Source: Promethearchaeota archaeon (GTDB taxonomy: Archaea; Asgardarchaeota; Lokiarchaeia; Sigyniarchaeales; SOKP01). From it: DNA of 32,000 nt. A program made the translations under genes and the position numbers. Below are positions 18,994 through 23,392 of this stretch, one piece after another (positions within the stretch are counted from its first letter, which is position 1; every line of letters starts with the position of its first letter). The stretch spans positions 360,001 to 392,000 of the forward strand of contig JAUWGH010000001.1 in assembly GCA_030606485.1 (NCBI GenBank), read 5' to 3'. Under the pieces are notes generated by a model that was not told the DNA's origin, did no database searches, and saw only the letters and a program-made list of their open reading frames with translations.

Positions 18994-20366
18994 TTGAACT
19001 TACTGAAAAATTAGTAAATATTTCTAATTTTTTAGTATCACTACGAGTCCACCATCACTTTTACTACGGATAGGGCTGTGTATCGTAGCAAATCCTTTTT
19101 TTGTAGAAAGGATTCCTCGTTCAAGGAGGGTTGATGCGATAGGAATACGTAACAATGCTTATTTTTCAAAAATTTAATCATAATGTTGATCGCAGAATTA
19201 AGATCACGATCAAGATAATTTCCACAATCGCATTGAATAATTCTTTCGGAAAGACTTCTTTTTTTAAGCTTTCCACAAATTGAACATCGTTGAGTAGTAT
19301 ACGATTCGTCAATTCTTATAACTCTTTTCCCTACAAGTCTCGCCTTGTAAGTTAAGAATTCGACAAAACGACCCAACGATCCCGTATTGTTAACAGAATA
19401 GTTTAAAGTTTTGTTAGCTTTATTTTTTTGAGCATTTCCCGTAGATTTTTTCTTTTTAGCCATCTCTTTCACATTTAGGTCTCCGACAATTATTGTATTT
19501 GCTTTGGTATGTGTCACAATCTGTTTTGAAATTTTATGTTGAAAATCACGCATTTGATAAGCACACTTTTGATGCATCTTCCTGAATTTGTGATGATATT
19601 TTCTCCACTTTTTACTATATTTTTTACAGTGGTCTCGCCTTGATTGAATGTTTTCTATTTTCTTTTTCCAATAGAGATCTGCTCTTTTATTTTTAATTTG
19701 AATAAATTTAGAGTGCAAATTCACCGCAGATACAATATTTGAAACTCCTAAATCAATTGCTTGATATAGCCCATTATCTTTGTATCTTGGTGCTTGAACT
19801 TCATATGTAATAGAAATAAACCATCGATTTTGGAAATCCTTAAAAATTTCCACCTGTTTAACCATTCCAACAGCACAATAAGGATATTTAAGAGAAAATA
19901 TTAATGGAATTTTTGAAGGGTGTTTATGCGAAAATTGTATCACTTTCTTTTCTAATTTGAAACCACTCTGATTATAACAGATTGTTGTAAATTTTTTTTT
20001 TGATTTAAATTTAGGTGGTCGAGCTTGTTTATCTCCATTTATCCATTTCGTAAAAAACGATTTATAATCGGAGTTGAGTCTTTTCAATATCATTTGTAAA
20101 ACTTTAGAATAAACCCATATATATTCAGGATATTTCTTTTTAAGTAAAGGTAATTTATTTTGTTGCTCTAAAGAAGATATATATTTTTTGTCGTCTTTTG
20201 GCTTATATTTGTTTTTATTCCAATTTTCTATTCTTTCAGCTAACGCAAAATTATATATTAATCGACATTTTTACGACAAATCCCACAGAATCAGTTCTTG
20301 ATTCTTTGAGGGAAATATTCGAATTTTTTGAGTTAGATTCACAATTATTATTCTATAAAGAATAAT
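18994..20366 (-). mobile_element. Non-autonomous IS200/IS605-family (IS1341-like, tnpB only) element
   Basis: tnpB ORF; right-end hairpin 19001-19037 followed by AGTTCAA (minus strand). The left end is approximate (hairpin ATTATTCT-TTAT-AGAATAAT at 20347-20366). No room for tnpA. Confidence 0.7.
19041..20342 (-). pseudogene. tnpB: TnpB RNA-guided endonuclease, interrupted by an in-frame TAA at codon 24
   Basis: GTG at 20342 is in frame with the ORF-track ATG at 20093. The reading is VNLTQKIRIFPSKNQELILWDLS*KCRLIYNFALAER. RuvC motifs AIDLG, IVGDL, IDESYTTQ and DRDLNSAINI; Zn finger CSIC...CDC. Confidence 0.85.
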
Positions 20367-20538: not shown

Positions 20539-21048
20539 ATTAGAGAAGAAACTGATTATGTAGAAGCAATTGAGGCATTTAAAGAAATTAATTTTGTAAT
20601 TATCGAACCTTGGGGAAGATCAATAGATCATTTAAGGCTTACTATAATTGGAAAACCAGGAACTCCATATAATGGGGGTAGATTCTTGTTTGAGATAAAA
20701 ATGCCTGAGAACTATCCTTTTGCACCTCCATATGTTTATGCCCATACTTTAATGTGGCATCCTAATATCGACTCTTCAATTCCACCAGGAAAATTGAATA
20801 TCTGTCTTGATCTTATAAATCCCGATCTTGTAGGTAAGGTTGATGCCTCTACTGGAGCTTCAGGATGGACTCCTTCTAAAACTTTAACAAATATTGTTGA
20901 ATCATTGAAGGGAATAATGCATGTGGAACCACCATTTTTTAATCCTGGCGATCCTTTAAATCATGAAGCGGGAGAACAATATTTTAGACAAAAATCGAAA
21001 TTTGATAAAAAAGCAGAGAGCTGGACAAAGAAATACGCTATGGATTAG
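20539..21048 (+). CDS. Ubiquitin-conjugating enzyme E2 (about 169 aa; start codon non-canonical or damaged)
   Basis: PGTPYNGGRF, YPFAPP, WHPNI, catalytic ICLD, WTP and PLNHEA motifs. The frame is open for 49 codons upstream of the ORF-track TTG (20686) and encodes the conserved E2 N-terminal strands. Confidence 0.9.
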   Translation: MREETDYVEAIEAFKEINFVIIEPWGRSIDHLRLTIIGKPGTPYNGGRFLFEIKMPENYPFAPPYVYAHTLMWHPNIDSSIPPGKLNICLDLINPDLVGKVDASTGASGWTPSKTLTNIVESLKGIMHVEPPFFNPGDPLNHEAGEQYFRQKSKFDKKAESWTKKYAMD

Positions 21049-21159: not shown

Positions 21160-21783
21160 ATGTTACTAAGTGAATTATTGGATTTTCCAAAAGATTTGCG
21201 AGTAGTAGTTTTTGATTTTGATGGAACTCTAGTAAAATTACATGTTGATTGGGATGCTCTGCGTAAATTACTTAGTGATAAATATATGGATGATTTTGGA
21301 GAAGAACAAACATTTAGTAGAATTACTTTAGGTTTAGAAAAAGTTGTAGCGAGAGGAGATCCCGAATTAATTGAATCTTATATTCGAACTATTGAAAAAT
21401 TTGAAAGAGATAATATAAAAGAATATACCTTCTTTGATGAAATCGTTTTTTTTATCGAGAATTTAGAAAAGTTGGGATTGAATTCAAATATAAAATTCGC
21501 AATTTTTTCTTTAAACTTTCGTTCAACAATTTTTTCTATTTTGTCTAAACAGAATCTCTTAGGAAAATTCCAATATATTGTAGGAAGAGAAGATGTTGTT
21601 GAATGGAAACCTGATCCTGAAGGTCTTTTTAAAATTCTGAAACACTTTAATATTTCTAGCGAACAAGCTATTTATATAGGGGATTCTGAGTTTGATATGG
21701 AAGCAGGCAAAAATGCCAAAATAAAAACTTACTTGATTGATAAATTCATAGCGAATATTAAGAAAGCAAGGAGTAAAAAATAG
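21160..21783 (+). CDS. HAD-superfamily hydrolase (phosphoglycolate phosphatase-like)
   Basis: DFDGTL, KPDPEG and IGDSEFD motifs. Confidence 0.9.
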   Translation: MLLSELLDFPKDLRVVVFDFDGTLVKLHVDWDALRKLLSDKYMDDFGEEQTFSRITLGLEKVVARGDPELIESYIRTIEKFERDNIKEYTFFDEIVFFIENLEKLGLNSNIKFAIFSLNFRSTIFSILSKQNLLGKFQYIVGREDVVEWKPDPEGLFKILKHFNISSEQAIYIGDSEFDMEAGKNAKIKTYLIDKFIANIKKARSKK

Positions 21784-21799
21784 AGTATCATTAAAAGTT

Positions 21800-23392
21800 T
21801 TACAGATAGGAAACGATTACATTATATTTTTTTATTTCTAATTCACCAATATCTTTACCTAAAGGCGTAAGTGTTACAACGTCATTACTCGTTATTTTTA
21901 GGCTTTGTAATAGAGCTTCAGGATCTTTAAAAGTGGGAATTGAGGGATGCCAAAGAATCTCTTTATTCATTGAATTCGTGATCATCCACTTTTCGGAATC
22001 TAATTTATAACCAGAAACATCCAATGCACTAAAAATGTCTTTAACCTTTGAATTAAATGGAACTACAATACTAACATTTTCCTCTCCTTCAATATCCCCA
22101 CAATCAATGCAATCTTCTCGTTTAAACACAGGAACCTGTTCGAATATCCCATAAATTCCGCTATAATTTACATAAGGAGGATCCATGGGGGGACCAATAT
22201 CCCTTCCCTTTGCTCTAAATATTAATTTTAGTGCCTCTTGGGATTGAATACTTGCGATAATTGAACTAACAGTCTGAACCGCAGCGATTTTATTTCCTAA
22301 AATATTTTCCATATCTTCAAATACATAATTTGGACCGAAAGTATCTCGAATATTAATCTTCCACTTTTGTATTTCTTCTTCTGATAATGTTGATAATTGC
22401 TCATCAGAGAGGTTTTCTTTAAAAACTCGTTCTCGTAATAATTCTAATTCCTCTTTAGCTAATTCCATTAATTTATATATATCCTCATCATTATCCAAAT
22501 CTGGCATCCATCCATATTTCTTTTCAAAATTTAACTCTGCTTTTAAAACACAATGATTTCTATTTCTCGGAATACCCTTTAATGTGCATGCTGCAATTAG
22601 TTTATCATCAGGTGGTGGAATAGGAACTAGACACCGATAACAAGCTGTTTGATCAAGATAATCTTCAGAATATTTTTCATCAAACTCATTTTCAACTTGC
22701 TGGCGAACTTTTTCAACAACCGGCTCTATAAATTGAGATTTTAATAGAGATATTCGCTCCTCAAGCTTTTCTATACTTTCTTGAGCAGCAAAATATTCAC
22801 TGTATTCTTCTTCAGATAAATCCCATAATTTTTCTTGTGCTATTTTATCTATAACTTTTTCTCTCTCATGGAATTTTATATTTGAGCCTTTTGGGATAAT
22901 GTTTTGAACATGACCCTCAAATCCTACAGTACCACCCTCAACCATTGGCTTTTTTAATCTTAAAGCAATCTTGTTTAAATCCATTCTTGCTCTAACATTA
23001 TCTAATGCAGCAATAATAACATCCGATTCTTCATACACCTTCATTGGAAGATTTTGTAATTTTTCGAAATAATACTCAACTTCGAGAAACGGAGCCATCA
23101 GTTTTAAACGCTCTGCAGCAACCTCAACTTTTGTTCTACCCTCATCTCCTGCATGAAACAACATTTGTCTTGAGAGATTTGAGGTTTCAATTTTATCCAT
23201 ATCAACTAAAATTAATTTCCCTATACCCATTAAAGCCAAATCCTTAGCAATCTCGCACCCCAAGGCTCCGATTCCAATAATTAAAGCACTGCTCCGTTGA
23301 AATGTCTCTTGATCCCAGCCTTCAACGAGCTGCTGACGAGCATACATCTTTCTTTCTTCTAAGGAAAATTCCCTTTTTTCCCTCGGTTCCAT
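21800..23392 (-). CDS. Ubiquitin-like activating enzyme E1 (UBA2/UBA3-like: adenylation domain, SCCH, putative UFD)
   Basis: YARQ, GIGALGCE, DMDKIETSNLSRQ, zinc pairs CYRC and CIDC, catalytic ACT in CTLKGIPRNRNHC, re-entry GNKIAAVQTVSSIIA and a ~90-aa C-terminal domain. Confidence 0.9.
   Translation of the reverse strand: MEPREKREFSLEERKMYARQQLVEGWDQETFQRSSALIIGIGALGCEIAKDLALMGIGKLILVDMDKIETSNLSRQMLFHAGDEGRTKVEVAAERLKLMAPFLEVEYYFEKLQNLPMKVYEESDVIIAALDNVRARMDLNKIALRLKKPMVEGGTVGFEGHVQNIIPKGSNIKFHEREKVIDKIAQEKLWDLSEEEYSEYFAAQESIEKLEERISLLKSQFIEPVVEKVRQQVENEFDEKYSEDYLDQTACYRCLVPIPPPDDKLIAACTLKGIPRNRNHCVLKAELNFEKKYGWMPDLDNDEDIYKLMELAKEELELLRERVFKENLSDEQLSTLSEEEIQKWKINIRDTFGPNYVFEDMENILGNKIAAVQTVSSIIASIQSQEALKLIFRAKGRDIGPPMDPPYVNYSGIYGIFEQVPVFKREDCIDCGDIEGEENVSIVVPFNSKVKDIFSALDVSGYKLDSEKWMITNSMNKEILWHPSIPTFKDPEALLQSLKITSNDVVTLTPLGKDIGELEIKKYNVIVSYL

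Follow-up and report, generated by a model that had tools for sequence, protein, structure and literature searches.

The window analysed here is a 32,000-nucleotide stretch of a Promethearchaeota archaeon genome (contig JAUWGH010000001.1, positions 360,001 to 392,000). It encodes a ubiquitin-like activating enzyme (E1) that unites in one chain features which eukaryotes divide between two E1 halves, and the locus raises the question of whether such an enzyme preserves the state that preceded the duplication of eukaryotic E1s. No prokaryotic proteins are closer to the enzymes that initiate all ubiquitin signalling than the Asgard E1s, and a question on which they bear is the route from a symmetric MoeB-like dimer to the asymmetric eukaryotic E1. 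The initial annotation of this DNA regarded an 81-residue insert in the enzyme as the counterpart of the FCCH domain of eukaryotic E1s and likened the whole protein, as a homodimer, to their ancestor. The reading favoured here is that E1 is a Lokiarchaeial activating enzyme for a ubiquitin-like protein (Ubl), predicted to form a homodimer in which an N-terminal arginine, R19, of each chain serves the other, and that the insert (insert 1) is a dimer clasp specific to its lineage; we assign this reading a probability of roughly 0.55.

The E1 gene lies in AT-rich DNA (~30% G+C for the window) and encodes 530 amino acids in a frame without stops, and the four features that had been named in it are all found where the initial annotation placed them (Table 1). 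Pfam recognizes ThiF alone, with an E value of 3.7e-56 and a match split across residues 24-428, which therefore points to large insertions within the domain. Among solved relatives, sequence comparison ranks the active halves of UBA1, UBA7 and UBA6 highest; UBA3 and SAE2 come next, followed by MoeB and ThiF. The ThiF/MoeB adenylation fold is present with intact nucleotide-binding residues, and the invariant positions of the enzyme include G40, G42, G45, D64, D66, N72, L73, K88, D131 and R136. In an alignment of 69 family members C251, C254 and C269 are invariant, and at least 90% of the members keep C428 and R19. The enzyme features a Cys4 zinc site, shared between the crossover loop and the loop ahead of the ubiquitin-fold domain (UFD) at the C-terminus, with C251, C254, C428 and C431 as ligands that are invariant in the comparison with ~415-residue Asgard E1s.

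The predicted catalytic cysteine, C269, opens the segment CTLKGIPRNRNHC and stands opposite C632 of human UBA1 and C600 of yeast Uba1, although the local alignment that pairs them is short and lacks significance by itself. The cysteine is carried by a separate domain that is reached through the crossover loop, modelled as helical over residues 256-365 between the crossover and re-entry segments. This domain had been called an SCCH domain; it is small (~110 residues), of the kind seen in UBA3 and SAE2, and gives no match to Pfam UBA_E1_SCCH. The C-terminal domain likewise has no Pfam UFD match at the sequence level, but its proposed identity as a UFD-sized domain behind a second CxxC pair is upheld by the CIDC motif and by the structural model.

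The AlphaFold2 model of the monomer, built on the 69 sequences, has a mean predicted local distance difference test score (pLDDT) of 81.9 and a predicted template modelling score (pTM) of 0.70. A Foldseek search with this model returned UBA3 (2nvu_B) first, at 7e-27, and structure comparison with UBA3 and SAE2 gave a VIA Z of ~29. The core superposes on MoeB and ThiF with Z ~32 (MoeB, Z 32.2 and root-mean-square deviation (rmsd) 1.6) and rmsd values of 1.5-1.8 over ~236 residues; 236 of the 240 MoeB residues are aligned with the inserts of E1 skipped. Residues 18 to 530 of E1 align with residues 5 to 535 of SAE2, and the alignment with UBA3 likewise extends through residue 530; the last domain of both chains is the UFD. 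Because the core superposes on MoeB and ThiF and the whole chain aligns with SAE2 and UBA3, the modelled architecture is that of a canonical E1 catalytic subunit, in which an adenylation domain is followed by a crossover loop anchored by zinc, a Cys domain that is small and helical, and a UFD.

Two helical inserts are added to this architecture. Insert 1 is located between the GHVQ.IIP strand (GFEGHVQNIIP, residues 157-167) and the first CxxC pair, and the spacing from this strand to the catalytic-cysteine segment is 93 residues in E1 as against 12 in UBA1; the insert is extra relative to UBA1 and to the ~415-residue Asgard E1s. It had also been described as helical and acidic. The AlphaFold2 model agrees with the former, drawing helices of 14 and 48 residues (177-190 and 198-245) and no strands; the latter holds only in that the insert has 22 D/E against 12 K/R and an isoelectric point (pI) of 4.5, but the pI of the whole protein is 4.85 and insert 1 is therefore hardly more acidic than the remainder of E1. 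Insert 2, which the initial annotation did not list, occupies approximately residues 321-351 within the Cys domain, in a region modelled as helices 302-327, 330-335 and 338-352. The two inserts always occur together.

Across 43 sequences of the long form the identity to the query is 45% in insert 1 and 71% in the core. Within insert 1, W190, Y200, L210, E211 and I214 are conserved in 100% of these sequences and A203, I207 and F237 in 98%, and position 217 is hydrophobic in all of them. The hydrophobic residues follow a 3-4-3-4 spacing over residues 203-217 and an i+4 spacing beyond the conserved P224. By this conservation insert 1 is a folded, selected element rather than a linker. Residues 168-250 have no match in Pfam, where the best hits are unrelated with E values of 0.02-0.08, and a search of PDB sequences with insert 1 returned nothing below an E value of 0.47.

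The distribution of the inserts bears directly on whether they are ancestral. More than 700 proteins match E1, and the top 120 are nearly all of ~527 residues with 62-67% identity, the named ones being from Promethearchaeota or Lokiarchaeota. In 400 genomes of the phylum searched with E1, whose families are labelled f1 to f7 here, full-length long forms are found only in families f1, f2 and f3 of the order to which the window belongs. Their identity to the query is 60-67% in f1 (roughly 115 of 134 genomes), 58% in f2, and 50-54% in f3, whose members include closed genomes 4.3-6.0 Mb in size. In the other families of this class, f5-f7, the ORFs are of 414-453 residues and match well to residue ~170, where the match breaks, and the remaining families of the phylum have shorter E1 forms. 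Among the best 150 matches from 1.84 billion cluster representatives, the long spacing occurs only in an f3-type representative and in a fragment of the query's own cluster. Several nearly complete f1 genomes (for example G233, G222, G276, G232 and G193) have matches at ~E 1e-40 and no long-form E1, which suggests that the long form was lost or replaced in some f1 lineages. A few other f1 genomes, such as G167 and G275, have an extra paralogue of ~400-430 residues.

A maximum-likelihood tree of E1s was inferred by a quick method with the insert columns dropped and with support from the Shimodaira-Hasegawa-like approximate likelihood-ratio test (SH-aLRT). The f1 long forms, the f3 long forms and the C-terminal halves of a fused E1 from the sister family f4 form one clade (SH-aLRT 100), which nests among short forms from its own class (96) and, one level further out, among more short forms (97), and eukaryote-type E1s form a separate clade. 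Both inserts are missing from the eukaryote-type E1s compared. Since the inserts are confined to f1-f3 and the long forms are nested among short forms that lack them, the sequences compared place the inserts as derived within one Lokiarchaeial order, not ancestral, and the proposal of an ancestral insert does not survive this survey of Asgard E1s. The likeness to a pre-duplication homodimeric E1 is plausible in itself, but insert-less members of the family share the arginine finger, the Cys domain and the UFD, and the likeness is therefore common to the whole Asgard E1 family and is not tied to the insert.

The quaternary structure was predicted for a homodimer of E1 residues 1-440 with an alignment made for this analysis and with three controls. 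The homodimer scored 0.61 (0.60, 0.66 and 0.61 in the separate runs) and the best control 0.00; the mark that calls a dimer, which was reached by 20 of 30 solved one-chain pairs and by 1 of 23 solved single chains, is only a rough guide here because of that alignment. At least 55% of the contacts agree between runs and the pLDDT of the partner is at least 71. One part of the predicted interface is MoeB-like and consists of residues 12-23 (including R19), 47-56, 70-81, 98-101 and 373-419. In the dimer model residues 15-20 lie beside residues 47-56 and 70-81 of the partner, which places the conserved arginine at the partner's nucleotide site. The claim that a partner-type arginine, a catalytic-cysteine domain and a UFD are combined in one chain is borne out, with R19 at the predicted dimer interface.

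The other part of the predicted interface is formed by residues 177-241 and takes in almost all of insert 1. Confidence in the complex is highest for the pairs 210-210, 207-214 and 203-217/218, whose residue numbers sum to approximately 420-427 and therefore indicate antiparallel pairing of the two copies of insert 1. These top contacts coincide with the conserved a/d-type hydrophobic positions A203, I207, L210, I214 and 217. The initial annotation had asked whether the insert lies beside the Cys domain of the partner; the model pairs it with the partner's insert instead, and no residue of the Cys domain (245-372) is listed among the confident trans contacts, which is not proof against such a contact. 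In the mechanism that we propose, E1 would be a symmetric homodimer in which R19 of each chain completes the ATP site of the other. The hairpin of insert 1 would span the two-fold axis and lie antiparallel against the partner's insert 1, centred on L210, and would be a dimer clasp gained inside one archaeal order alongside insert 2 of the Cys domain.

What the analysis shows for E1 is its motifs and their conservation, its fold, its spread across taxa and its place in the tree; homodimerisation and the geometry of the clasp are probable from the models, and the pairing of E1 with a Ubl and an E2 is plausible. Several points weigh against the clasp. The core interface resembles the solved homodimers of MoeB, ThiF and UBA5, and that part of the prediction may echo those structures. 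The pLDDT of insert 1 in the monomer model is moderate (55-76), and P224, conserved in 95%, should kink the long helix that the model draws as continuous. The tree was made quickly, its only support values are SH-aLRT, and its trichotomy of f1, f3 and f4 does not separate a single gain with one loss from two gains. Finally, the constant co-occurrence of the inserts fits packing of insert 1 on insert 2 within one chain equally well. Such cis packing is the strongest rival to the clasp. The two inserts would then be a helical module of a single chain on the Cys domain, gating the catalytic cysteine or offering a docking surface for an E2, a Ubl or another partner, and the dimer contact of the model would be incidental. 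The joint absence of both inserts from the fused f4 form, the modest pLDDT of insert 1, and the i+4 hydrophobic residues after P224 (225, 229, 233, 237 and 241), which are those of a helix on a protein surface, are in its favour. The top-confidence contacts of the complex, however, run from insert to insert across the dyad at conserved a/d positions, and E2 orthologues are of 171-173 residues and collinear in lineages with and without the E1 inserts, so there is no sign that E2 co-varies; this also led us to drop the idea that E2 co-evolved with the insert. We regard cis packing as possible but clearly the less likely arrangement.

The remaining alternatives concern the relation of E1 to the eukaryotic enzymes. 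The FCCH domain of the UBA1 type is a beta-barrel. If insert 1 corresponded to the FCCH domain, or to the insertion of AOS1 and APPBP1, it would work in trans on ubiquitin that the partner subunit binds and the enzyme would preserve a pre-duplication state. The topology agrees with this, since the strand ahead of insert 1 is the one that leads into FCCH in the inactive half, and in a symmetric dimer each insert is topologically also the insert of the partner. FCCH and SCCH are insertions into two pseudosymmetric adenylation domains, and FCCH varies widely in size and form among eukaryotic E1s, being a disordered loop in SAE1 and expanded in NAE1 (PMC12355090). At this same site, however, the active half also has the exit of its crossover loop and Cys domain (PMC12355090). 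Insert 1 is all-alpha, two helices and not a barrel, and has no E1_FCCH or other significant sequence match; together with its restriction to three families nested among insert-less forms, its absence from the eukaryote-type E1s compared, and the lack of listed confident contacts to the partner's Cys domain, this leaves only the topological position from the proposed equivalence and makes functional or evolutionary equivalence with FCCH improbable. Only marginally less doubtful is a convergent role, in which insert 1 would touch the Ubl bound or thioester-linked on the partner subunit besides clasping the dimer and would be an FCCH stand-in within a symmetric E1; if this were true, one Lokiarchaeial order would, with the independently duplicated tandem E1 of f4, show two separate routes from a plain homodimer toward the design of eukaryotic E1s. 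Least credible is a heterodimer like SAE1-SAE2 or NAE1-UBA3, in which E1 would be the catalytic half and a separate degenerate ThiF-type protein its partner. The nearest structural relatives, UBA3 and SAE2, are indeed heterodimer subunits, but the arginine for which a heterodimeric E1 relies on its partner is retained in E1 itself, and the homodimer prediction clears its controls. The other ThiF-family genes of the genome, whose completeness is rated 100%, are only two, encoding a 255-residue MoeB-like protein and a 287-residue protein. No SAE1- or NAE1-like gene is among these three, in agreement with the original expectation that E1 needs no separate partner subunit. The preferred reading stays with an Asgard E1 that probably carries an order-specific helical clasp, as the dimer model predicts.

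The f4 family of the same order features another departure from the plain homodimer, an E1 of one chain in a UBA1-like layout, whose N-terminal adenylation domain is degenerate while the C-terminal one is live. Such loci are found in four genomes (G279-G282) and on one metagenomic contig, as open frames of ~730-985 residues of which two are cut by contig ends. The C-half, with neither insert, is 63-66% identical to the query core. In the N-half YARQ and GxGxxG are retained, but it has lost SNLSRQ, D131, both CxxC pairs and the catalytic cysteine. The model of the tandem protein (pLDDT 77, pTM 0.70) matches full-length UBA6 and UBA1 over ~1040 alignment columns with TMq 0.54-0.57. Helarchaeal and Lokiarchaeial E1s are the nearest to the N-half (38%, 3e-37), whose 40 best matches include no inactive domain of a eukaryote. 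Because its nearest relatives are these E1s and not eukaryotic inactive domains, sequence similarity marks the f4 duplication as independent of the eukaryotic one. Bacteria also have tandem E1s (BilD, PMC11354881). The literature searched, the coverage of which is incomplete, gave no published account of a tandem E1 in Asgard archaea or of the insert in Lokiarchaeia.

Table 1. Features of the E1 locus and of related loci (window positions unless a locus label is given; residues refer to E1)
Feature	Position	Strand	Remarks
E1 (ubiquitin-like activating enzyme) gene, 530 aa	21800..23392	-	stop-free frame; Pfam ThiF 3.7e-56
YARQ motif with R19, candidate trans arginine finger	residues 17-20, 23333..23344	-	R19 conserved in at least 90% (69 sequences)
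ATP-binding motifs GxGxxG (residues 40-45), D64, ETSNLSRQ (residues 69-76)	23165..23275	-	invariant residues
Insert 1, short helix (177-190) and long helix (198-245)	residues 168-248, 22649..22891	-	extra relative to ~415-aa relatives
First CxxC (CYRC; C251, C254), zinc ligands, crossover-loop start	residues 251-254, 22631..22642	-	invariant; SAE2-type layout (PMC12355090)
Catalytic-cysteine segment CTLKGIPRNRNHC (C269...C281), predicted	residues 269-281, 22550..22588	-	C269 invariant; C269 codon 22586-22588
Insert 2, helical, inside Cys domain	residues ~321-351, 22340..22432	-	missing from every short form and from the fused form
Second CxxC (CIDC; C428, C431), zinc ligands ahead of UFD	residues 428-431, 22100..22111	-	invariant in the comparison with ~415-aa Asgard E1s; C428 in at least 90% of 69 sequences
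C-terminal ubiquitin-fold domain	residues 437-530, 21803..22084	-	alternating strand/helix; model aligns with SAE2 and UBA3 to the last residue
E2 (UBC fold), likely cognate	20539..21048	+	Pfam UQ_con; ATT start codon
HAD hydrolase	21160-21783	+	
TnpB-type transposon gene	19041-20093	-	~450 bp upstream of E2
Highly repetitive helical protein, 2244 aa	25107-31841	-	beyond the subtilase that adjoins E1
f4 tandem E1 (P0123)	L004:1291-3693		~680 bp downstream of a ubiquitin gene; small opposite-strand ORF between
f4 tandem E1	L009:1989-4367	-	further copies L008, L042, L043
30-nt insert in related E1 genes	L006:268-297		
30-nt insert in related E1 genes	L007:1633-1662	-	also L012-L018

E1 and E2 are convergent around the HAD gene, and the E1-HAD-E2 arrangement recurs in G145, G147, G184, G160 and G216. 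The first 49 codons of E2 contain no ATG, GTG or TTG, and its apparent ATT start lies 7 nt after an AGGTG motif. Two further species of the genus keep this arrangement, and an f3 orthologue has ATG at the same codon, on which grounds truncation of E2 by the upstream TnpB element was rejected. The sole match to Pfam ubiquitin in the genome is an 84-residue protein ending in GG-I (G000:C10:752621-752812; L005:1486-1740, minus strand), whose gene is ~370 kb from E1 and E2, so that the genes of the system are dispersed and do not form an operon. Because this GG-I Ubl is present and an intact E2 adjoins E1, a functional Ubl-E1-E2 pathway is plausible from the gene content.

Related E1 genes reveal a further peculiarity. 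In nine genomes of genera g5 and g11 of f1, exactly 30 extra bases lie inside the GxGxxG codons, between GVGAL and GCEIAKD. The insert introduces one or two in-frame stops and the E1 ORF is otherwise intact. The E1 of the window has no such insert, and the equivalent site is between codons L44 and G45 (~23258-23263). The 30 bases fit a bulge-helix-bulge (BHB) structure, with a central helix of 3-4 bp in which the end of exon 1 is paired with the insert's 3' end, bulges of 3 nt that lie on opposite strands and each contain a junction at the same relative position, and a 9-bp inner hairpin. Over the nine copies the pairing is satisfied in 87.5% of cells, compared with 24-44% for slid partners, and four pairs change on both sides, in a comparison of few related sequences from which the structure itself was derived. 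The element thus fits an intron-like insertion of the tRNA (BHB) type. Translational bypass was set aside since the take-off and landing codons mismatch and the bulge-helix-bulge fits. The ORFs scanned beside the intron-bearing E1 gene gave no Pfam match to a homing endonuclease. A search for 30-nt repeats elsewhere, with a pattern that was one base too long and did not recover the E1 sites, returned matches at the level of the controls, and the two that were opened lay in an uninterrupted synthetase-like ORF. The sequencing runs listed for two of the intron-bearing loci are DNA only, from salt-marsh metagenomes. In the literature searched, the described case of an mRNA intron of the BHB kind is cbf5 (PMC2738675).

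A late, order-specific insert removes one tempting 'missing link' for eukaryotic E1s. In its place, Lokiarchaeia of the cultivable type provide two observations, an apparently coiled-coil-clasped homodimer and, in f4, a tandem duplication with one dead half. Either the clasped E1 or the f4 tandem E1 offers a tractable model for what dimer asymmetry buys an E1.

Archaeal E1s are among the closest known systems. The E1-like protein of Candidatus Caldiarchaeum subterraneum and the ~415-residue Asgard E1s (PMC5654768; PMC11354881) are, like the Lokiarchaeal E1, single chains with a small catalytic-cysteine domain and zinc cysteines, and belong to a set of ubiquitin, E1 and E2. The short Asgard E1s are collinear with the Lokiarchaeal E1 at 32-50% identity and both inserts are missing from them; a further difference from the Caldiarchaeum-type and short Asgard systems is that the Ubl, E1 and E2 genes are dispersed here. 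The MoeB and ThiF homodimers share with E1 the adenylation core, the N-terminal trans arginine, the Cys4 zinc site and the regions of the predicted dimer interface; however, they serve sulfur-carrier proteins and have no catalytic-cysteine domain, UFD or insert.

Among the eukaryotic enzymes, UBA3 and SAE2 (UBA2), the catalytic chains of the NEDD8 and SUMO E1s respectively, have in common with E1 the adenylation domain, the CxxC crossover loop, the small helical Cys domain, the second CxxC pair and the UFD, and the four-cysteine zinc site of SAE (PMC12355090) is also found in the Lokiarchaeal E1. UBA3 and SAE2 have few residues at the site of the 81-residue insert and receive the arginine from a separate inactive subunit, whereas the Lokiarchaeal E1 has its own R19 and no such partner gene. 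UBA1, UBA6 and bacterial BilD feature an inactive and an active adenylation domain in each chain, while the E1 of the window has a single adenylation domain.

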